Source: Archaeoglobus fulgidus DSM 4304
Lineage (GTDB): Archaea; Halobacteriota; Archaeoglobi; Archaeoglobales; Archaeoglobaceae
Assembly: GCF_000008665.1 (NCBI RefSeq)
Contig: NC_000917.1
Location: 1,230,001-1,262,000, forward strand
DNA length: 32,000 nucleotides
Reading direction: 5' to 3'
Shown here: positions 3,166 through 32,000 of the stretch, piece by piece
Layout: every line of letters starts with the position of its first letter
Numbering within the stretch: position 1 is the stretch's first letter
Translations under genes and position numbers: made by a program
Notes under the pieces: generated by a model
Told to the model about the DNA's origin: nothing
Databases searched by the model: none
The model's input: the letters and a program-made list of their open reading frames with translations, nothing else

Positions 3166-4198
3166 CTCTCAGTTTTCTTCTCACCGCATGAACGCCAATT
3201 CCCACTGCGGTTGCACCAAAGATGCCAGCCCCAAGCGTTGTTGGATTCAACCCGAGGAAGCTGGGGATTGACGGGAGCTCAGCGTAGAAGGGTGAGAACT
3301 TGTCCGGCCATCCCGGCTCTGAGCATGCAATGCATGGGGCCCCTGCTTCGACGCAGTAGCTGGTCTTGCCGTTCCACCTTCTCGAGGGGCAGTCTGTAAA
3401 GGCAACAGGCCCCTTGCATCCAATCTTGAATCTGCATCCATCTCCGTTTCCGGGCTCCTCAATGAAGACTCCTCTGTCATACAGAGGTCTGTAGGGGCAG
3501 AGCTCGTCATGCATGTTTGTGCCAAAAAGGGCCTTTGGCCTGCCATGCTCGTCAAGGTCAATCTTAGCCCCCATTATTACAGCTGAAAGAATGATGACGA
3601 CATGCTCCCCATTAACGGGACAGAGAGGAAGATTGATAACGGGCTTTGCAATACCTTCCTCTCTCAGGAACTCTGAAAGTCCCATCGCCCCGGTAGGATT
3701 TGGATTTGCCGCAGGTATGCCTCCAAAGGTTGCACACTGGCCGACAGCAACTATGGCATCAGCAACCTCTGCGGCCTCCCTAACGTGCTCCCTGAAGTCC
3801 TTTCCTGCTACCACACAGTAACCGGGTTTCTGGACAGCCCCTTCAACAACAAGAATCCTCTTGCCCTTCTCTCCAGCTTTCCACCTCTCCTTAAGCTTTT
3901 CAGCGAGTGTTCCTGAGGCTGGATGTATCGTTTCCATGTAGTCGGGAAGAGCTATCGGCAATCCAGACGTCCCAACGATAATCTCAGTTAGAATCTGCAC
4001 CAAATCCGGATTCGACGCTTGAGCAAAGGATACCGTGCATCCCGTGCACGCTGCCCCGTTCAGCCAGCAAATGTGCCAGTAATCCTTCTTTGCCTCAACT
4101 GCTCTCACTATGTCCCCTTTATACGCGCTCAGAAAAGCTGAGGCACCCATGGCCGCAACAAGCTTCATAAAATTCCTTCGGGTAAGGCTCATCATCAC
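3137..4198 (-). CDS. vhtG: [NiFe]-hydrogenase small subunit with twin-arginine (Tat) signal peptide
   Basis: 353 aa. N-terminus MMMSLTRRNFMKLVAAMGASAFLSA (RR motif plus hydrophobic stretch) and Cys clusters such as CTGC and CIAC. GGAGGG lies just upstream, and the first codon is GTG followed by two ATGs. Confidence 0.9.
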   Translation of the reverse strand: MMMSLTRRNFMKLVAAMGASAFLSAYKGDIVRAVEAKKDYWHICWLNGAACTGCTVSFAQASNPDLVQILTEIIVGTSGLPIALPDYMETIHPASGTLAEKLKERWKAGEKGKRILVVEGAVQKPGYCVVAGKDFREHVREAAEVADAIVAVGQCATFGGIPAANPNPTGAMGLSEFLREEGIAKPVINLPLCPVNGEHVVIILSAVIMGAKIDLDEHGRPKALFGTNMHDELCPYRPLYDRGVFIEEPGNGDGCRFKIGCKGPVAFTDCPSRRWNGKTSYCVEAGAPCIACSEPGWPDKFSPFYAELPSIPSFLGLNPTTLGAGIFGATAVGIGVHAVRRKLRGEKDEQDSY

Positions 4199-4312
4199 AG
4201 ACCCTCCATTTTTATCCTTAGCATTTTCAATTAATAAAAAAGATTTCCATTAAAAAAAATGCAGAAAAGTTAATATTTTTAATTTCTTATTCTTTTTTAA
4301 ATGCATTTAAAA
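4199..4312 (-). promoter_or_regulatory. AT-rich promoter region of the vht operon
   Basis: 114 bp of very AT-rich sequence with several TATA-like runs between the wHTH gene stop and the vhtG start. It contains aaaagttaata (4265-4275), which is also present twice upstream of hdrA. Confidence 0.4.
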
Positions 4313-4606
4313 TCATGTATCATTTTCCATAATATCGATAATGCTCTTGATTTGCTGGGCAATCTTCTGCCCTTTATCAGTCAACCTTATAATTTTTGTT
4401 CGACCCTCAAGTTCGCATTCGACCATTTTTGCCTCTTCAAATTTTTTTATAATCAGCCAAACGTAGCTGTGAGGGCTGTTTACCTTGCTGGCAATGTATT
4501 GGATGTAAACGTCATTACCGCCAAGGCTTTCATAATAGATTGTCATCAAAATCTCAAGCGCTTTTTCTTTAAAGAGAAGCTTGATTCTTTCGTCCTCCAC
4601 CCTCAT
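4313..4606 (-). CDS. Small winged-helix (ArsR/MarR-like) DNA-binding protein
   Basis: 97 aa. The pattern ...IASKVNSPHSYVWLIIKKFEEAKMVECELEGRTKIIRLTDKG resembles an HTH followed by a beta-wing. It is AT-rich relative to its neighbours. Confidence 0.55.
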   Translation of the reverse strand: MRVEDERIKLLFKEKALEILMTIYYESLGGNDVYIQYIASKVNSPHSYVWLIIKKFEEAKMVECELEGRTKIIRLTDKGQKIAQQIKSIIDIMENDT

Positions 4607-4612
4607 CGAAAA

Positions 4613-4632
4613 AATTGTACAAATCTACAATT
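4613..4632. promoter_or_regulatory. Inverted repeat aattgta-N6-tacaatt, 7-26 nt upstream of the wHTH gene start (candidate autoregulatory operator)
   Basis: Read directly: aattgtacaaatctacaatt, with two perfect 7-bp arms. Confidence 0.3.
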
Positions 4633-4715
4633 AAAAAACTTTACTTCCTAAAAAATCGCAATCCAATTTGTCTGCGTCTGAGGTTTTTAAACCCATAATC
4701 CAAAAAAGCAACAAC

Positions 4716-4740
4716 TGTGATATCCCGAATTAATTTCACT
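4716..4740. repeat. IS terminal inverted repeat (transposase 3' side)
   Basis: Sequence tgtgatatcccgaattaatttcact. The transposase stop codon lies inside it. Confidence 0.8.
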
Positions 4741-5635
4741 CCTCAAACAACCACCTCCCGTACTCAAACACCCTTTCAGCAGGTAGCTTCCTCAAAAAGG
4801 CCTGATAGGGAGTCTCCAATTCGTCGAAATTCAGGCTCATGTGAGGCTTAACGTAATTGTACCAATAAATGAACTCATCCAAAGAATCAAACAGATGGAT
4901 CTTCTGCTCCATCAAACCAAAGAACCTCTCTATCTTTCCATTCGTTTGTGGATGGTTTATTCTGGCAAGAACATGCCTTACTCCATTCTCGGCCAAAAAC
5001 TCCCTGAATCTATGCTTGGCCTTCTCTCTGCTTTTAGCTGCAACAAACTGAGTTCCGTGATCTGTGAGGATCTCATCCGGAATGCCATACTCCCTGAATC
5101 CCACTTTCAGGACTCTAATCGTGTTCTCAGTCGTAGCTGAATCGAAGACTCCGTAACAAGTAATAAAGCGGGAAGCATCATCCATGAAGGCTATAATCCA
5201 TTTCTCTCCAAGCCTCTTCCAGTCTCCCTGCCATAAAGACATTGAGTGGGTTCTTTCGTATCTAACCCATTTCCTTCGTTTCTTCTTGCTCATGTTCTCC
5301 TCCACCAAACCGTGTTTGAGTAAAACTTTGTAGATTGTATTATGGGAGATGTGGATGCCGTAATCCCTTTCTATCAGCCTTTCCAATGGTACTGGGCTGA
5401 GTCTGTATTTTTTGTAGGCCTGCAGGATTATTTGCTCTGTCTTTTCGTCAATTGGTTTGGGCTTTCTTCCTGCTTGTTTGAGTTCTGGAATCTGGCCAGT
5501 TTCCTCATATTGTTTTTTAAGCTGGTAGATTCTTCTTGGTGTAACTCTCATCACAGCGGCTATTTCCTTTACTGGAGCTCCCTTGTCAAGCTGTCTGATT
5601 ATCCACCTGATCTTTTTGTTCGTTAGTTTTCTCAC
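4736..5635 (-). CDS. IS transposase (HTH + rve/DDE integrase core)
   Basis: Motifs WQGDW...FMDDASRF...TDHGTQF...HPQTNGKIERF. The 340-aa track ORF runs past the IS boundary at 5678, so I place the start at the in-IS GTG at 5633-5635, giving MRKLTNKKIRWIIRQL. Confidence 0.85.
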   Translation of the reverse strand: MRKLTNKKIRWIIRQLDKGAPVKEIAAVMRVTPRRIYQLKKQYEETGQIPELKQAGRKPKPIDEKTEQIILQAYKKYRLSPVPLERLIERDYGIHISHNTIYKVLLKHGLVEENMSKKKRRKWVRYERTHSMSLWQGDWKRLGEKWIIAFMDDASRFITCYGVFDSATTENTIRVLKVGFREYGIPDEILTDHGTQFVAAKSREKAKHRFREFLAENGVRHVLARINHPQTNGKIERFFGLMEQKIHLFDSLDEFIYWYNYVKPHMSLNFDELETPYQAFLRKLPAERVFEYGRWLFEE

Positions 5636-24835: not shown

Positions 24836-25300
24836 TTATCCAAAGAACTGCTTCCAGATTTTGTCCTTAATGTGGTGTATGTTCTTCACAGCCTTACCTT
24901 TCCCCCTTACCATCTCCTCTCCATTGCAGAGCGCCACCCCAACGGCAATCGGACTGTCCTTGCCCTCGACTGTCACAAATACAAAGTCACCTTCCTTTAT
25001 CCTCTCGTCCGCATAAACGATGCCCGGCTTCATAACGTCCGCACCGTTCATCACGAACTTCAGCGCCCCCTCATCAACTGTCACCCTGTACTTTTCCGGC
25101 TTGAGCTTTATGGCCCCGTAAACGGAGAGGTAGTATCTTCCGTCGTAGTTGATGACCAGAGGTTCGTTATCAACCAAGATTACCTTTATGCTGCCAAAGT
25201 CAACTTCGTCCATCTCGCCCTCAACCCTGGCCCCGGCGTTTTCCTCCACCTCAGCACTAACCTTCTTTGCCTCCTTCTTCCTGAGCCTCCTGCGTCGCAT
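24836..25300 (-). CDS. PUA-domain RNA-binding protein (archaeal MCT-1/Tma20-like)
   Basis: 154 aa. NGADVMKPGIV...GDFVFVTVEGKDSPIAVGVAL...KGKAVKNIHHIKDKIW. Confidence 0.7.
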   Translation of the reverse strand: MRRRRLRKKEAKKVSAEVEENAGARVEGEMDEVDFGSIKVILVDNEPLVINYDGRYYLSVYGAIKLKPEKYRVTVDEGALKFVMNGADVMKPGIVYADERIKEGDFVFVTVEGKDSPIAVGVALCNGEEMVRGKGKAVKNIHHIKDKIWKQFFG

Positions 25301-25317: not shown

Positions 25318-25333
25318 CTTTAAAAATATTTAT
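25318..25333 (-). promoter_or_regulatory. TATA-like element (aaatatttttaaag on the minus strand) about 20-30 nt upstream of the PUA gene ATG, abutting the stop codon of the Res-like helicase gene
   Basis: Read directly in the 32-bp gap 25301-25332. Confidence 0.4.
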
Positions 25334-27660
25334 CAGTTACCACTCCCCACGGATTCAGCCATACTTACGTAAAATTTCTGAACGTAATCCTTTAAGACTG
25401 CCAAAACAATTTCTTGGAACTTTCTCAGCCCATCAAACGACTTTATCTTTAGTTTTCCGTTGTTATTCTCAATGCCTATCCCATCCATCTCGCTCAAAAA
25501 CAACCGGTACTTGTTTGATTTGGCTATTCGCCTTAATGTGTCAGCATCCACAATGAGGTTGTAGAATCCTCTTGTGATTTTGAAGTTTATGATTTCCGAG
25601 CGCACGTATTGCCAATCGATTAGCTCGAAATACTCTTCAGGAACCTCTACTGGATTGTCCGTTACCGTTTCAGCAGCTCCAACCTTCAATCCGTGCGCTA
25701 CAGTAATTTTAGGCCTCAAATCAATCTTAATCGTCTCCAGAATATCTTCCTCAAATCTGAGCTTCACGGGATAATCAAAACCATCCTTTGTTGTGTAAAT
25801 TCCATCTTCCCGTTTTTCGGGACGGTTGAGCCTAATTGCTAACTCCTCGTAATCCACTTCCTCATTTGATATCGCCCTCAGGAATGCGTTAATGTAGTCG
25901 GCGTTTAGCCCAAAAATGAAAAGCGTCTGCAGAACCTTGAGTTTGTAGTCCGGATTTTCCTCCCTTTTCAAAGAGAAGTTCTTCCCCTTCAGCCTTACAC
26001 CCCTTCCAAAGAGCTGGATGATCTGAGGCCCCTCCCCCTTCCCCATGTTGATTAAAACCATGTTAGAAACTCTCCATGAGTTCCAGCCCTCCACAAATTT
26101 TTTCGAACCAATTAGTATATTTATCGAAGAATTGTTTTCGTTAACTTCGAAAAACAAGGAATGGCTGAAATGGTCCTCTTTGACATCCATCTCTGAAATC
26201 AACTTTTTCAGTGTGCCTACATCACCAACATTAACGACGCCGAAATAGCTTTCAGCCGTGGAAATCTTGAGCCCCAACTCCCCATCGGCATTATTTATTT
26301 CGTAAACCTCCAGCCTCCCCTTACCGCCAAATACTTTCCGATAAACGTTTTCCACAAGAGAATCGACGTCGAGATTTCTTATGAACTCGAACTTTCCCTC
26401 AAAAATATCGTTCCCGTTGGTGTCCAAAAGTCCAGACTCGCCTTTCAGGATTTTCGCAGCGTTCTCTTTCAGATACCTTTCATCCCTTGCTATTCTTTCC
26501 AGATACTGAATTACCCTAACTACATCTGAATTTATTCCCTTTCCAGCGACCCTGCTACCAACAAAAACCCACAGGGGTTTCTCTATGCTGTAAGCTCTCA
26601 GCTCATCCCTGTATCTTTCAAAAACTTCCAGTTGCTCGTAAAAAGACAGCAATGCTGCAGTAAGTAGCAAATCTCTCTGCGTTTCTGTGTAGGCGTCTTC
26701 TCTTATGTTGTAAACGTAGAAGTCCTTTCCGTATCCGTCTGCGTAGAAGTACTTGTAGGAGTAATCGAAAATGATTGCCTTCGCGTATTCCTCAAGCAAA
26801 TCCCTGTTCTTACCCACAACCTGCCCGAAAGTTGCGGAGTACTCAAATATAAACCCGTTCTTTCCTATCTCCTCCCTCAGCTTTTTCCACTTCTGCTCCT
26901 CCGACTTCTGCCCCTTATGTCCCTCGTCGATAAACACCAGGTTTTTACCGTCAAAATAAGAAACGTCAACAGTCACACCTCTCCCCCTCTTCTCTTCAGT
27001 CAGCTTGTGGATGTCTATTACCAGAATCTCTCCGTCTTTCGTTTTCAGGTTGTCAACATTCCCATCGTACAGCTTGCATGGAATGCCGCTCAGCCTCAAT
27101 TCCTCGTAATGCTGCCTGGACAGTCCTTCGTTGGGTGTTATCAGAATTACGTTGTCCCAGCGGTTCTTCGAATATTTTAACATTTGCCAGTAGTTTATGT
27201 GCATTACAAGGGTCTTTCCGCTTCCCGTCGCCATCCAGAAGGCAAGCTTCCTGAGGTCCTCTTCTGTGAAAGGGGCTACTTTCTTTTTGCTTTTTTTGCT
27301 GTAGTTATCCAGAAACGTGTTGAGGTCGCTTAGAAATCGACTTCTGTCGTTGTAATACGCATCCAGAAAGATTTCTGTGAACAAAACAGCTAGATACTGG
27401 AAGTATTTGAGGTTGAAGCTCTGCTGTCTTCTATTTCGCCTTAATCTCTCAACATACTCCCTTATTGCCTCATCGTATTTTATTAAGTCCCTTTCCCAAT
27501 CCGGCCTTAATCGGATTAGGAGGTCAGCAAAATAGCTTCTACCGGAAGCATCGTAGCCCTCCAGCGCGTCTTTCAGCTTCTCTCTCAGCTCGTTGAAATG
27601 ATTAATACCGAAAAGGTTGAGAAAGTATTTGTTCAGAATCAAATACTGCTCAAGCCTCAT
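25333..27660 (-). CDS. Type III restriction Res-like SF2 helicase/translocase (no obvious nuclease domain)
   Basis: Walker A WMATGSGKT (27211-27231), DEGH (26917-26928), SAT, KFVEGWNSWRV and QLFGRGVRL. I prefer the ATG at 27658-27660 (MRLEQYLILN), which has GGAGGG 7 nt upstream, to the TTG at 27738 used in the track. Confidence 0.8.
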   Translation of the reverse strand: MRLEQYLILNKYFLNLFGINHFNELREKLKDALEGYDASGRSYFADLLIRLRPDWERDLIKYDEAIREYVERLRRNRRQQSFNLKYFQYLAVLFTEIFLDAYYNDRSRFLSDLNTFLDNYSKKSKKKVAPFTEEDLRKLAFWMATGSGKTLVMHINYWQMLKYSKNRWDNVILITPNEGLSRQHYEELRLSGIPCKLYDGNVDNLKTKDGEILVIDIHKLTEEKRGRGVTVDVSYFDGKNLVFIDEGHKGQKSEEQKWKKLREEIGKNGFIFEYSATFGQVVGKNRDLLEEYAKAIIFDYSYKYFYADGYGKDFYVYNIREDAYTETQRDLLLTAALLSFYEQLEVFERYRDELRAYSIEKPLWVFVGSRVAGKGINSDVVRVIQYLERIARDERYLKENAAKILKGESGLLDTNGNDIFEGKFEFIRNLDVDSLVENVYRKVFGGKGRLEVYEINNADGELGLKISTAESYFGVVNVGDVGTLKKLISEMDVKEDHFSHSLFFEVNENNSSINILIGSKKFVEGWNSWRVSNMVLINMGKGEGPQIIQLFGRGVRLKGKNFSLKREENPDYKLKVLQTLFIFGLNADYINAFLRAISNEEVDYEELAIRLNRPEKREDGIYTTKDGFDYPVKLRFEEDILETIKIDLRPKITVAHGLKVGAAETVTDNPVEVPEEYFELIDWQYVRSEIINFKITRGFYNLIVDADTLRRIAKSNKYRLFLSEMDGIGIENNNGKLKIKSFDGLRKFQEIVLAVLKDYVQKFYVSMAESVGSGN

Positions 27661-27752
27661 TTCATACCCTCCAGTACTATATCTCAGGAGCTTGAGCTTT
27701 CTCTTAAATTTTTCCCCAAAAATTGTGAAAACAGACAAGGAGAGTCGAGGCG

Positions 27753-28217
27753 TCAGACCGCGTAATCAAGTATTTCATCAGTATCCAGGTTCAATAATGG
27801 GGGTAATTCACTTTTTTCCACTTCCACATCATTCAACCTGATAATTGCGGAGTTATCGGGATTCGTGTTAGAAAATGACAAACGATAATAACCCAAATAT
27901 TTGTACTCTGCTAAGGATTTGGGATTTTTCGGCCTCTCCTTTGGAGCCGAATTAAAATATTGCTCTGCCTCTGAAAAAATTTTGTTCATTGTATCAATAA
28001 ACTCAAGCCTATCCGACCGTATTTCCGAATTGTTAGTTAATTCTTCTACGAAAATAAAATATCCTGTGCAATAGTTAAGAAATATCCAGCGGATTGGCCC
28101 TATATAATCAAATTTAGACACTATATCCTCTCCCATGACTTGTTTCAAGTTAGACCCACGATAAAAGGACCTTTCACTTTCTGTTTTTTTGTAGTTTAAT
28201 TTTTTCTGCAGTCCCAT
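27753..28217 (-). CDS. Hypothetical 154-aa protein, no recognisable family. It may be the C-terminal half of a split or frameshifted gene together with 28196-28630
   Basis: ATG-initiated ORF in a very AT-rich stretch. It overlaps the upstream ORF by 22 nt and lies in the -1 frame relative to it. Confidence 0.45.
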   Translation of the reverse strand: MGLQKKLNYKKTESERSFYRGSNLKQVMGEDIVSKFDYIGPIRWIFLNYCTGYFIFVEELTNNSEIRSDRLEFIDTMNKIFSEAEQYFNSAPKERPKNPKSLAEYKYLGYYRLSFSNTNPDNSAIIRLNDVEVEKSELPPLLNLDTDEILDYAV

Positions 28218-28630
28218 AGCATTTTCAACATATATTCCTCTATTTGAAAATCTTTAAAAATTTTATAATTCTCTAGTTTATAAACTATGTAATCCTCAAT
28301 GTTTACTCTCACCTTTTCATTTTTGTCATTTAGAAAATATACTGTTCCATCCTCCAGAACATAAAGCACGTCAGTGCCCAAAAACTTCCATTCACTTAGA
28401 TCGTTTATCAAAAACTCGTTGAACAACATAAATATCACCCTCTGTGGAAGGCGAAGTTTAGCATTCAGGCTATTTTTTTCTTCTACGAAAAAGAACACTT
28501 TCTTTTTCTTGCTGAGAAATACAAAATCGATATCCTGAGTGACCAATCCCTCGTATGCAGATTTCAAATTTTTCCTCATCCAAACTGAGAAGCTGTCCAT
28601 TGACAAGCTCATTGCCAACCCGGGCAACAT
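28196..28630 (-). CDS. Hypothetical 144-aa protein with a PD-(D/E)xK-like nuclease motif
   Basis: ...GLVTQDIDFVFLSKKKKVFFFVEEKNSLNAKLRLPQ... contains D35-x14-E50-x-K52 embedded in beta-strand-like hydrophobic runs, followed by a Gln, as in restriction-endonuclease-fold cores. Confidence 0.45.
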   Translation of the reverse strand: MLPGLAMSLSMDSFSVWMRKNLKSAYEGLVTQDIDFVFLSKKKKVFFFVEEKNSLNAKLRLPQRVIFMLFNEFLINDLSEWKFLGTDVLYVLEDGTVYFLNDKNEKVRVNIEDYIVYKLENYKIFKDFQIEEYMLKMLWDCRKN

Positions 28631-28646
28631 GCTACCATCTATTATA

Positions 28647-31556
28647 TCAATTTTGTGGTGTAAACATCAACGATTTAAACAACGACTCTATTGGCCTGAA
28701 GCCCTTTACCGCTGCATCCCCATTAATGTAAATCTCGTCGGGTTCAAACCCATTTACGTTGCTCTCGATAACCTCTCTGTCTTTCTTCCAATCTATGCCC
28801 ACAACGCTTCTCCAAACAATAGAAATCCTTTTTCCATCTTTTTCTCCAAAAACAAAAACGTATTTTCTTCCGTTCTCTTCCAAAAACCTGTACTTGGCCA
28901 CATTCAAGCCAAGTAAATAATTGAAGGTCTCAACCAAGTCGGCATTAACCACCTTTTGCCGGTAGTTCTCCATGATTCTCAGCCTGTAGCTAAAGGGGTC
29001 TACCAGCTCATCAATGTCGAGGAACGTCTTGCTGTGCTTGGTTTCCCATTCGAGCATGTATCTGACAAAATAATCTGTGAAATCGTACAGTACTCTCTGC
29101 ACCTCCCCAAACTCAACGTTTTCCAGCGCATCCTCGTACTGCTCCAGCGTGTGGTATTTGAAAAACCCTCCCGCCGTTTTTTCGTTGTATTTTTCCCTGA
29201 CGTCCTTCTCCTTGCTTATGCCGGACTTGTCGTAGAACAGAACCTTTTTCATTCTCGGCAAAACCACTGACCAAAAGTGTTCTCCCATCTCAACGCCAAT
29301 CCACTTTCTTCTGAGTTTCTGGGCAACCGCCGTTGTCGTTCCCGAGCCGAGAAAGAAGTCCAGAACCAGATCACCCTCGTTGGATGTCGATTCTATGACG
29401 CGCTTCAGTAGAATTTCGGAGTTTTCAGTGGAGAACTTGAAGCCGTCGGAATAGGATGGGATGTCCTTCCAGTTGTCGGTTATCTTAACCTCATCGGAGG
29501 TTAGATACTCAACCTTCCAGTCATCTCCGCCGCAGTTTAAGCACCTGTCAATTTTTGTGACACCGAAAACGGCTGTCTCTGGTTTTATGTCAAAGTACTT
29601 GAACGCCTCAGTTTTACTTGCCAAAATCTTATTTCTGAACTTTTCTTTCGACTCCTCTTCGTCCCAGTAATAAACGGCCCCGCATTTTTTGCACTTCAGT
29701 CTCAAAAAGTGTTCTTTCAGGAGTTTGTCCACCTTCTCCTGCACCAATGAAAAATGCTGCCCCTTCGGTGGATACAGAACTTTCCCGAAGAACGTCCTTT
29801 CCGGCGGATTCCTCTCCCCCTGGTTTAAAAAGCCCGTCCATTTGAAGTCCACGAGACTTCTCTTCCTGTACAGGTCCCTTCTCAAATAATTGTCCGATTT
29901 TGAATAAAAGAGCAGATACTCGCTCTCAACTTCAAACTTGTTGGGTGTGCCTATGCTCTGCCTCTTTCTGTTCACTATGATTTCGTTTCTGTAGTTGTCC
30001 TTGCCGAATATCTCATTCAACAAAAGCTTTAAGTAGGCGTTGCCGTTGTAATCACACCTGACGAAAATACTACCCCTTTCGTTCAGCAACTCCCTCCCAA
30101 GCCTGATTCTGTTTTCAAGCATCGTTATCCACGTTGCATCCTTGTAACCAACCTTATAGAGAAAGTCAGCTTCCTGCTCTTTGTTGAAGGGAGGGTCGAT
30201 GTAGATCGTCTGAACCTTTTCGTAGTACTTGCTCAGCAGCAGATTTAAGGCGTGAAAGTTCTCGCTTTTTATCAAAACACCATCCAAAATCTCATCCAAA
30301 TCATTTTCCCTGGTTAAAGCGTCCACCAATTTCCACTTAAAGCTCTCGCTGAAATGTCTCGTGTCAATCGGCAGCTTTTTCCACTCCTTTCCCTCCAGAG
30401 TGTGGCCGGAAAGGAGGTCGCCTTTTCCCTTAACTTCGATGCCGAAAAGCTCCCTCCACTCCTCTCTCTGCCTTTCGTTGCTCAAAATCTCGTCAAGAAT
30501 GCTTTCTAGGAACTCTTCTCCAGCATACTCCTTAATCCTGTCCAGTGTGATTACGTAATGCGTATCAACAACGAACTTCTTCTTTTCCCAGAGCCTCTTC
30601 TGAAAGTTTTCAATCTGCGCCAGAAAATCGATTATCTTCAGAGCGATTCTTCTGAAAACCCTCATTCCAGCAAGGTAAAGTCTCAGCCTCTCAAAATATT
30701 TGCTCTCCTCCAAAACCTGCAGGTCCTCCAGCTGCAAAAACTCGTTTTTAATGTAAAAGTCCAATTCACGCTCCAGAAATCCCCTCAAATCCCTGTGAAT
30801 GAAATAGTCTGTCGTGTTTCTTCTGGTGTAATTGTAGAGATGCCTTTCAATGTAACTCCTGCCCTTCTGGGAGTTCGGGTCTTTTTCGAAGATTAGTCTT
30901 GCCAAACTTTTTTCCGGAATCTTTCTCTGCAAAATCCTAACCGTTTCCTCGTTGATTCTATCCTGCGTTATTCGCTTGAACCTTTTCTCTTCCTCCTCAG
31001 TAAGACCTCTGTATTCAAAGTATATGTTCAGCTCCCTCCTCTCCTCGTCGAAGTCCGCTATTTTTTCACTTAAAACGAAAAACTTCCTCTCCGGTGACTT
31101 TATGTTGCCCTTCTCCTCCTCTGCCTCCACAACTCTAAAGTTAACGGTCAACTCCTTAACCCTAAACGTGTACCTCCCGAAGCATTCGGTGGTTTTTACG
31201 TAATATTGATCCTTGTTTGCCCAGTAAAGCAAAACCTCCTCACCGTTGTAGGGAACGACGTACTTTTCATTCCTTCCGTATCTCCTTTTGCTTATGAAGT
31301 CGCCTTTGTCATAGTACCTTGAGAAGAACGTTATCAGATGATTGTAAACCTCCTTCTCCAGCTCTTCAGCCAATTTCAGCTGATTTTCAATTTCCTCAAT
31401 TAAATCCTTCTCGATGAACCTTTCAATCTCCTCCCGCCTGTAGTTCATTATCCTGTAGATGCCAAAGTCCAGATCAGCATTCTCGAATTGAAACATTTCT
31501 CTTAAATTTGCCTTCAATTTCTCTTTCAGGTCGCTTTTGCCCTCCATACTACCCAT
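28647..31556 (-). CDS. Large beta-class (N6-adenine/N4-cytosine, PF01555-type, Mod-like) DNA methyltransferase with a ~440-aa N-terminal extension, a Cys4 zinc ribbon in the target-recognition region and a ~200-aa C-terminal extension
   Basis: 969 aa. Motif IV IYIDPPFN (DPPF at 30186-30197) precedes motif I LVLDFFLGSGTTTAVAQKL. CKKCG...CLNCG (29532-29693) lies between them. N-terminal conserved-looking blocks are DLDFGIYRIMN and YVVPYNGEEVLLYWANKDQYYVKT. Confidence 0.85.
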   Translation of the reverse strand: MGSMEGKSDLKEKLKANLREMFQFENADLDFGIYRIMNYRREEIERFIEKDLIEEIENQLKLAEELEKEVYNHLITFFSRYYDKGDFISKRRYGRNEKYVVPYNGEEVLLYWANKDQYYVKTTECFGRYTFRVKELTVNFRVVEAEEEKGNIKSPERKFFVLSEKIADFDEERRELNIYFEYRGLTEEEEKRFKRITQDRINEETVRILQRKIPEKSLARLIFEKDPNSQKGRSYIERHLYNYTRRNTTDYFIHRDLRGFLERELDFYIKNEFLQLEDLQVLEESKYFERLRLYLAGMRVFRRIALKIIDFLAQIENFQKRLWEKKKFVVDTHYVITLDRIKEYAGEEFLESILDEILSNERQREEWRELFGIEVKGKGDLLSGHTLEGKEWKKLPIDTRHFSESFKWKLVDALTRENDLDEILDGVLIKSENFHALNLLLSKYYEKVQTIYIDPPFNKEQEADFLYKVGYKDATWITMLENRIRLGRELLNERGSIFVRCDYNGNAYLKLLLNEIFGKDNYRNEIIVNRKRQSIGTPNKFEVESEYLLFYSKSDNYLRRDLYRKRSLVDFKWTGFLNQGERNPPERTFFGKVLYPPKGQHFSLVQEKVDKLLKEHFLRLKCKKCGAVYYWDEEESKEKFRNKILASKTEAFKYFDIKPETAVFGVTKIDRCLNCGGDDWKVEYLTSDEVKITDNWKDIPSYSDGFKFSTENSEILLKRVIESTSNEGDLVLDFFLGSGTTTAVAQKLRRKWIGVEMGEHFWSVVLPRMKKVLFYDKSGISKEKDVREKYNEKTAGGFFKYHTLEQYEDALENVEFGEVQRVLYDFTDYFVRYMLEWETKHSKTFLDIDELVDPFSYRLRIMENYRQKVVNADLVETFNYLLGLNVAKYRFLEENGRKYVFVFGEKDGKRISIVWRSVVGIDWKKDREVIESNVNGFEPDEIYINGDAAVKGFRPIESLFKSLMFTPQN

Positions 31557-31624
31557 CCCTTAGTCTTTAGTCTTATTATCCTACCACCCATTCATTTTTG
31601 AGCGTATCGGTTTCGTGTTCGAGA

Positions 31625-32000
31625 TGTGATATCCCGAATTAATTTCACTCCTCAAACAACCACCTCCCGTACTCAAACACCCTTTCAGCAGGTAGCTTCC
31701 TCAAAAAGGCCTGATAGGGAGTCTCCAATTCGTCGAAATTCAGGCTCATGTGAGGCTTAACGTAATTGTACCAATAAATGAACTCATCCAAAGAATCAAA
31801 CAGATGGATCTTCTGCTCCATCAAACCAAAGAACCTCTCTATCTTTCCATTCGTTTGTGGATGGTTTATTCTGGCAAGAACATGCCTTACTCCATTCTCG
31901 GCCAAAAACTCCCTGAATCTATGCTTGGCCTTCTCTCTGCTTTTAGCTGCAACAAACTGAGTTCCGTGATCTGTGAGGATCTCATCCGGAATGCCATACT
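31625..32000 (-). mobile_element. Second copy of the 963-bp IS (partial, cut by the window end), same orientation as copy 1
   Basis: By my base-by-base reading, 31625-32000 is identical to 4716-5091. Confidence 0.85.
31645..32000 (-). CDS. IS transposase, C-terminal part (gene continues beyond the window end)
   Basis: Translation is identical to the C-terminus of the 4736-5635 transposase (...HPQTNGKIERFFGLMEQKIHLF...). Confidence 0.85.
   Translation of the reverse strand, partial: YGIPDEILTDHGTQFVAAKSREKAKHRFREFLAENGVRHVLARINHPQTNGKIERFFGLMEQKIHLFDSLDEFIYWYNYVKPHMSLNFDELETPYQAFLRKLPAERVFEYGRWLFEE

Follow-up and report, generated by a model that had tools for sequence, protein, structure and literature searches.

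What kind of system do the genes AF1406-AF1409 of Archaeoglobus fulgidus encode, and in what state is it today? The genes lie within a 32,000-nt stretch of the strain DSM 4304 genome (NC_000917.1, positions 1,230,001 to 1,262,000), which we call the window and whose numbering is used throughout; positions in other loci are given after the locus name. The original prediction, made from the letters of the window, described a non-canonical restriction-modification (R-M)-like cassette of four genes: a Mod-like methyltransferase, two small open reading frames (ORFs) and a Res-like helicase. The textbook Type III R-M system has two subunits, as in the Mod2Res1 assemblies EcoP15I and EcoP1I; its cleavage depends on ATP and on two unmethylated sites in inverse orientation, and it hemimethylates an asymmetric site. 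A literature search on AF1406-AF1409 found nothing. Here we argue that the locus is probably an acquired Type III-like system of three genes, mod, X and res, and that it is a partly degraded copy in which Mod is intact and the Res motor has been kept, but both nuclease modules are compromised.

The two small ORFs between mod and res, ORF144 (28630..28196, minus strand) and ORF154 (28217..27753, minus strand; UniProt AF_1407), overlap by 22 nt. ORF144, ORF154 and their fusion all failed to match Pfam, PADLOC, NCBIfam or the PDB sequences, and a word-indexed search with ORF144 alone found no homolog. The family was reached only by an exhaustive HMMER search with the fused sequence of 292 aa, of which residues ~12-290 aligned to ~20 single proteins of 255-305 aa (best match E 2e-52, 48% identity). 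In the closest other genome with the system, an Archaeoglobus sp. metagenome-assembled genome (MAG; locus L030), the gap between mod and res is occupied by one 283-aa ORF that aligns straight through the ORF144/ORF154 junction (35% identity, E 3e-47). A profile search gave ~35 protein clusters with intact homologs of 255-311 aa, every one of them annotated as 'hypothetical' and lacking a Pfam domain. The split falls in a conserved inter-domain linker, 'LWDC.G..PP.KTE.ERS', through which the homologs read. We therefore treat ORF144 and ORF154 as the two halves of a single frameshifted gene of ~290 aa, here called X, and the predicted four-gene system does not stand: the 154-aa ORF, thought to be an orphan, is the C-terminal half of X. 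The PD-(D/E)xK-like motif noticed in ORF144 was real, being part of the conserved core of the family described below, but the 144-aa ORF carrying it is the N-terminal half of X and not a stand-alone gene. As far as the libraries and literature that we searched can show, X has not been described before.

X keeps constant company. An intact copy lies directly after a large N6_N4 methyltransferase gene and before a ResIII helicase gene in four independent genomes (Aquifex pyrophilus, Methanocaldococcus sp. 16A, an Armatimonadota MAG and a JGI metagenome). When metagenome contigs were scanned with the profile of X, 36 loci emerged; in every locus with enough flank, archaeal or bacterial, X was co-directional with, and adjoined, Mod and Res. 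The order was mod-X-res in L030, L094-L097, L099-L101, L103, L105, L108, L109, L113 and L116, and mod-res-X in L115 and L117-L122; in L129 a single-domain X is flanked by a Mod of 738 aa and a Res of 865 aa. Because the Res proteins that X accompanies fall into two families only ~25-28% identical, while their Mods remain 46-61% identical to the window Mod and X typically starts 2-7 bp past the Mod stop or overlaps it, we conclude that X tracks Mod. The original prediction would have fallen had the small ORFs been unrelated passengers, such as a toxin-antitoxin pair. We rejected this: they are halves of one gene, gave no toxin-antitoxin or PADLOC matches, and co-occur with the methyltransferase and helicase in more than 25 other loci. 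The locus thus departs from the two-gene mod-res plan of Type III systems by a third conserved gene, split here, between the usual two; plain two-gene relatives also exist (L001 and L003). We also observed a 719-aa Mod-like methyltransferase followed by a 171-aa single-domain X, with no Res gene downstream (L131:1899-4581), a pair that looks like a two-gene R-M system.

The methyltransferase gene, mod (31556..28647, minus strand), encodes 969 aa, or 966 aa if started at the second ATG. In beta-class Type III Mods, motif IV (DPPF/Y) precedes motif I (FxGxG) with the target recognition domain (TRD) between them, and in the window protein 'IYIDPPF' lies upstream of 'DFFLGSGTT'. Mod matched Pfam N6_N4_Mtase at 9e-38 and the REBASE-derived Type III Mod profile of PADLOC (MTase_III, PDLC03638) at 1.2e-174, with residues 17-890 covering positions 11-794 of the 816 in the profile. 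Type III Mod structures were matched among the PDB sequences at 3e-17 to 4e-22, EcoP15I Mod at 3e-17. The protein aligned over its full length with its relatives (77% to L030, 62% to L001). It is therefore assigned, on these matches, as a large beta-class N6/N4 DNA methyltransferase of the Type III kind, in agreement with the first description, and it appears intact. The long N- and C-terminal regions, which had been regarded as extra, are typical of the family, since the Type III profile matches nearly end to end.

The helicase gene, res (27738..25333, minus strand), reads 801 aa from a TTG and 775 aa from the ATG at 27660; because all homologs begin at the Met encoded at 27660, we take Res to be 775 aa. 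It matched Pfam ResIII (2.9e-16) together with DEAD and SWI2_SNF2 domains, and has the superfamily 2 (SF2) helicase/ATPase core of a Type III Res. It also matched PADLOC REase_III at 5.2e-126, in an alignment that stopped at profile position 879 of 1154. Relatives at 60-77% identity have lengths of 1030-1085 aa. Homology to them ends after '...KDYVQKFY' (~25369) and is followed by an 11-aa unrelated tail; in the alignment with protein P0006, for example, it ends at about residue 775 of 1041. The ~265-aa C-terminal extension of the relatives has near-invariant E ... PD ... DxK columns ('NKGETKF ... YPDF ... IDPKG') and is the classical Res endonuclease domain. No trace of this domain was found by tblastn across the whole window, and Res had no match among the PDB sequences. 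The window Res thus lacks the PD-(D/E)xK endonuclease of a Type III Res, as had been suspected from the missing motif, and the alignments and the tblastn search leave no canonical C-terminal endonuclease hidden in the helicase. Because the closest relatives carry the E..PD..DxK domain, its absence is a secondary loss.

This loss is not confined to A. fulgidus. In at least six lineages, nuclease-less Res proteins have their C-terminus no more than ~13 residues from one shared '...KFY' helicase/nuclease boundary (window ~25336-25369; P0071, P0077, P0111, P0112, P0020 and P0026; L094:7837-9960; L116:7811-9889), so that clean shedding of the nuclease domain appears to be recurrent. The L094 and L116 proteins (the latter 692 aa) are 48% identical to each other, and both are nuclease-less, stop at the same point and are linked to X. 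Such recurrence suggests that loss of the nuclease is tolerated or even selected.

What, then, might X be? With the family alignment as input, the AlphaFold2 (AF2) model of the fused protein is one compact fold (predicted local distance difference test (pLDDT) 91.6; predicted template modelling score (pTM) 0.90) and comprises two similar alpha-beta-beta-alpha-beta units. As hhalign matched the N-terminal to the C-terminal half of the family with a probability of 97.1% (E 7.6e-11), X is an internal tandem duplication of a small domain. That ORF144 and ORF154 are instead separate paralogous genes was considered, a direct BLAST comparison being weak (E 0.13), and was resolved as this duplication within one gene. 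In the N-terminal copy D33, D35, E50, E51 and K52 are invariant. D35, E50 and K52 are invariant in all 34 full-length and 24 single-domain members, and are on strands E29-40 and E45-52 of the model; the family thus conserves a D...(D/E)xK motif on adjacent beta-strands. The C-terminal copy (ORF154) is degenerate, with one acidic residue kept and the catalytic Lys lost. Other family motifs are FS.WMR.NL, WIFVNYCTGYF and NPKS..Y.YLG. The single-domain relatives, of 105-185 aa, mix motifs of both halves (e.g. 'QDIDWIFVNYCTGNFIIVEEKT' in L129) and look like the ancestral form.

Comparisons with known nucleases pointed in one direction without reaching curated thresholds. Of the 24 single-domain relatives, 4 matched Pfam VRR_NUC, at best with 1.2e-4 and short of the gathering score, and one matched NERD (0.0098, sub-threshold). 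A Foldseek search of the BFVD viral models with X gave an unnamed 121-aa protein as the top match (E 5.9e-5), followed by a PD-(D/E)XK protein (5e-3) and a VRR-NUC protein (1.2e-2), with probabilities of 0.85-0.96. Against the PDB, Foldseek gave nothing at <=1e-3; among its weak, non-significant matches were A. fulgidus Hjc, a Cas4-family protein, cap-snatching endonucleases and the CidB/CinB tandem nucleases; profile searches of the PDB with X gave no match. The assignment of X as a PD-(D/E)xK (VRR-NUC-like) protein is accordingly well motivated but not proven, and to that extent the expectation of a PD-(D/E)xK-like protein encoded between mod and res was borne out. One candidate source was rejected: the halves of X are not the relocated nuclease domain of Res, to which they are unrelated (hhalign probability 0.2-0.3% against the Res nuclease alignment; no BLAST match).

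To see what else can occupy the position of X, we examined by tblastn 80 genomes carrying this Res family. In ~40% of the loci an insert of 0.2-3.8 kb separates mod and res, and Res is full-length in nearly all of these. The inserts are varied cargo of the defence or toxin-antitoxin kind and include AbiEi/AbiEii, Fic/DOC, Schlafen-AlbA_2 with HATPase_c_4, HTH-Peptidase_M78, a DUF1016/YhcG PDDEXK nuclease and a Type II REase-like ORF (examples from the L014-L093 survey are L024:1940-3471, L033:4728-5801, L040:3680-5282, L046:526-2133, L055:4133-5290 and L071:4871-5869), and their GC content mostly equals that of the flanks. The mod-res junction of this Mod/Res family thus acts as a cargo slot. 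Could the slot ORFs be systematic replacements for the Res nuclease? This is unsupported, as most loci with inserts keep the domain, and so do 17 of the 20 X-linked loci, the exceptions being the window, L094 (Aquifex) and L116. Nuclease-less Res is also found without any slot ORF (L013, L022 and L134), and its association with X (3/20 versus 4/70) is not significant (Fisher p = 0.18). Because most X-bearing loci keep the Res nuclease, X is an additional component and not a systematic substitute. Three further small slot ORFs with D..(D/E)xK hairpin motifs were seen: ORF185 (L010:5392-5949) has weak Hjc and AHJR-like matches, ORF251 (L012:3297-4052) contains 'FDIRI...IDVK', and ORF156 (L011:5540-6010) matches PADLOC REase_II at 3e-10. 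Res is nuclease-less in L010, and probably in L012. In L097 (7840-10552) X and Res are separated by an MNT/HEPN (NTP_transf_2 + HEPN) pair together with a fusion of methyltransferase and SNase and a Type II endonuclease, RE_MjaI, which makes a defence island within the R-M operon of a three-gene system.

The state of the A. fulgidus copy was examined by comparing strains. The seven copies (the window and six others) are 99.8% identical without indels, and both the X frameshift and the Res truncation are common to all seven. Between the window and the other six, Res has 12 differences, 9 synonymous and 3 nonsynonymous; the ratio of nonsynonymous to synonymous differences per site (pN/pS) is 0.088 (P = 9e-5). 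Res is thus under strong purifying selection, and we reject the idea that the cassette is a neutrally decaying relic as far as Res is concerned. Synonymous divergence in res (25333-27660; pS 1.85%) is ~5 times that in mod (28647-31556; 0.35%), and the X region has no differences at all between strains. Given the excess of pS over mod, and since all 12 differences set the window apart from all six other copies, the data suggest that the res segment was imported by recombination.

These observations can be brought together as follows. The locus would be a horizontally acquired Type III-like R-M cassette in the recurrent form mod-X-res. Mod would methylate a presumably asymmetric site, and Res is reduced to its SF2 ATPase/translocase core by loss of the C-terminal endonuclease. 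X arose by tandem duplication of a small PD-(D/E)xK-like domain; because its N copy is catalytic-looking (D35...E50-x-K52) and its C copy degenerate, it is a built-in pseudo-dimer, which may act as a conserved partner of Mod and Res. In A. fulgidus X is split at the inter-domain linker, probably by one lost A in an A-run. Since both nuclease modules are damaged, the cutting arm is most likely disabled or strongly weakened, with the methylation arm persisting. R-M decay usually takes this course, with nuclease modules compromised and Mod intact. The Res motor is kept under selection, plausibly since Mod needs Res to methylate: with DthLIII and FnoB1III, Type III enzymes of thermophiles that form N4-methylcytosine (m4C), Mod alone gave 0% methylation, and 64-91% was reached when Res was co-expressed (PMC8259958), which rationalizes keeping a motor that has no nuclease. 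Overall, AF1406-AF1409 is probably a methylation-competent, restriction-impaired remnant.

Several points weigh against this reading of a partly degraded copy. The Res end boundary shared by at least six lineages, together with the X-linked L094 and L116, hints at a stable functional variant rather than decay. All 24 family-invariant residues of X are kept in the split copy, with both halves open, and X may still work as two chains or through frameshifting; ORF144 alone could even be active, given that single-domain relatives occur naturally. The nuclease fold of X itself rests on motifs, sub-threshold profile matches and modest Foldseek scores, those against the PDB being non-significant. The DthLIII/FnoB1III rationale is by analogy with systems that may lie outside this Mod/Res family, and a literature search turned up neither a methylome nor expression data for A. 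fulgidus. Some of these points would fit a system that is functional as it stands, in which the nuclease-less Res and Mod recruit X in trans to cut, X acting as a single-domain homodimer of ORF144, as its short relatives would, and ORF154 perhaps joining as a further chain. The three X-linked loci with a nuclease-less Res, the small D..(D/E)xK ORFs in the same slot of other loci whose Res is nuclease-less (L010 and probably L012), the selection on Res775, the intact residues of X, the position of the split in the region of lowest internal pLDDT and the existence of single-domain homologs all speak for such a detachable nuclease. However, Res has kept its own nuclease in most X-linked loci, has lost it in loci with an empty slot and shows no significant association of that loss with X; X is itself frameshifted in two of the three X-linked loci concerned (the window and L116), and Mod dependence on Res would explain the retention of Res equally well (PMC8259958). 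We regard a system functional in this form as unlikely. A wider version, which we hold to be similarly doubtful, makes mod-X-res a Type III-like system whose nuclease subunit is separable: X, a pseudo-dimeric VRR-NUC-like nuclease in this view, would dock on Mod and could take over cleavage entirely where Res has shed its nuclease (A. fulgidus, Aquifex pyrophilus and L116), the active A. fulgidus form being made from two chains or by programmed -1 frameshifting at A-AAA-AAT. That X has no part in the system, and is an independent cargo or defence gene such as a solitary restriction-like nuclease that landed in the insertion slot, would fit the frequency of unrelated inserts at the junction and the nesting of a whole Type II R-M system and an MNT/HEPN pair there in L097. 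Yet X, unlike the cargo, was seen beside Type III-type Mod genes alone wherever a locus had flanks, takes either of two gene orders, accompanies two dissimilar Res families whose Mods are alike, and is usually all but joined to the Mod stop; the nested genes in L097 lie downstream of X and not between Mod and X. We consider independent cargo improbable.

The split in X raises its own alternative, because it falls at a sequence suited to recoding. ORF144 terminates in A-AAA-AAT-TAA, from which a -1 shift leads into the ORF154 frame. A-AAA-AAT (28199..28205, minus strand, read from 28205 to 28199 with the TAA directly after) is a perfect slippery X-XXY-YYZ heptamer, in the zero frame of ORF144 and at the ORF overlap, as programmed frameshifting would require. 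It is the heptamer shown to drive -1 frameshifting of fucA1 in Sulfolobus solfataricus, likewise an archaeon and likewise at the overlap of two ORFs (PMC1616953). Full-length X might then be produced by programmed -1 ribosomal frameshifting or by transcriptional slippage, and the split would be regulatory and not a defect. Consistent with this, the shift would restore the family-wide frame precisely at the inter-domain linker, and the split is fixed in all A. fulgidus strains without further damage to X. However, no significant stimulatory RNA structure was found downstream (z = -0.15, the lone hairpin starting ~35 nt away), so that, in contrast to fucA1, there is no flanking stem-loop. Nor is the split conserved: X homologs are single ORFs, and the sole other split copy (L116:6980-7805), which also adjoins a nuclease-less Res, is independently frameshifted elsewhere, inside its 'WIFLNYC' motif. 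Loss of one A from a run of seven is the simpler explanation. With no structure nearby, unsplit homologs and a different break in L116, we favour a simple 1-nt deletion over programmed recoding, and a regulatory split has little to recommend it in our judgement, although low-level frameshifting at A-AAA-AAT may occur.

The reading as an acquired cassette also agrees with the setting of the locus. As first described, its ORFs are co-directional on the minus strand and closely packed, with +16 nt from Mod to ORF144, and +14 nt or +92 nt from ORF154 to the TTG or ATG of Res, respectively. GC content is 0.33-0.40 at 27.5-28.5 kb and 0.41-0.48 (mostly 0.42-0.45) in the remaining cassette versus ~0.47-0.56 in neighbouring genes; the AT-richness that had been reported, most extreme near 27.75-28.65 kb, is therefore genuine, and the notion of an acquired R-M-like islet is supported. 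On one side, 32 nt from the Res stop as had been stated, lies a housekeeping PUA-domain gene (25300..24836, minus strand; Pfam PUA 1.2e-21) that is the neighbour in all A. fulgidus loci. On the other is the end of an insertion sequence (IS) element (31625..32000, minus strand, continuing past the window edge) that encodes a transposase with an rve core; its ORF at 31645-31905 matches the rve_3 integrase core at 3.5e-9. Alignment with IS-less A. fulgidus strains starts at window position 31624, so that the IS boundary and the Mod ATG are the predicted 68 bp apart. L004 has the IS, but it is absent from L005, L006 and L009, where a VitK2_biosynth-family gene adjoins mod. The IS end is thus real, but the IS occurs in some strains only: it is a strain-specific later neighbour outside the cassette and not a part of it. 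As the vehicle of the cassette it is ruled out, since IS-less strains carry a cassette that is otherwise 99.8% identical.

Two observations concern the surroundings. A second stretch of low GC content is found at window positions 4001-5000 (0.39 versus ~0.50 around it). Downstream of the cassette (window ~22.9-23.9 kb region; L004:13906-15969 versus L005:11013-13213), a FecCD permease and an ABC ATPase are called as 282 aa and 291 + 133 aa in strain DSM 8774 (CP006577), and as 328 aa and 405 aa in other strains; the shorter or split calls reflect either strain-specific gene disruption or an annotation difference.

How does the system compare with those already described? It resembles EcoP15I and EcoP1I in its beta-class Mod with a central target-recognition region, which matches the EcoP15I Mod structure sequence and the REBASE-derived Type III profiles; in the SF2 motifs of Res (ATGSGKT, DEGH, SAT, QxxGRGxR); and in its co-directional mod-then-res operon, the Res of full-length relatives having a C-terminal PD..DxK nuclease. 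It differs in the much larger Mod (~970-1000 aa) and Res (~1040 aa) of this family, in the conserved third gene X, and in the nuclease-less window Res without a PDB sequence match. DthLIII and FnoB1III are likewise thermophile Type III systems whose genes are large (~2.6 kb for mod and ~3 kb for res, judged from the inserts), and Desulfurobacterium relatives occur among this Res family. The same study (Murray et al. 2021) shows that a Type III locus can have a conserved third gene (PMC8259958); that gene, however, encodes a helicase-like ATPase without a nuclease motif, lies 5' of mod and is not X. In Haemophilus influenzae, Type III loci are known in which res is inactivated and mod retained (PMC1976455), and these phasevarions share with A. 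fulgidus the disabling of res by mutation with mod kept, restriction being lost and methylation retained. There, however, res carries a frameshift and repeats make mod phase-variable, whereas the A. fulgidus res has undergone a clean domain deletion and is under purifying selection, and no repeat tract was noted in mod. With VRR-NUC, NERD and Hjc-type nucleases, and with pseudo-dimeric tandem nucleases, X has in common its small alpha/beta core and a D...ExK motif carried by a beta-hairpin; it differs in its family-specific motifs, its fixed tandem architecture and its exclusive linkage to Type III Mod/Res, and no match of X reaches a curated threshold.

If the reading of a three-gene system is right, some Type III systems would have in X a conserved third component, beside the unexplained ATPase reported in 2021. 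The A-AAA-AAT split in X is a candidate for a second archaeal -1 frameshift. The recurrent nuclease-less Res proteins, with a motor that is under selection, offer a natural test of the surprising result that Mod needs Res in some thermophiles. For A. fulgidus itself, a model archaeon, a restriction-impaired AF1406-AF1409 would matter for genetics and transformation.

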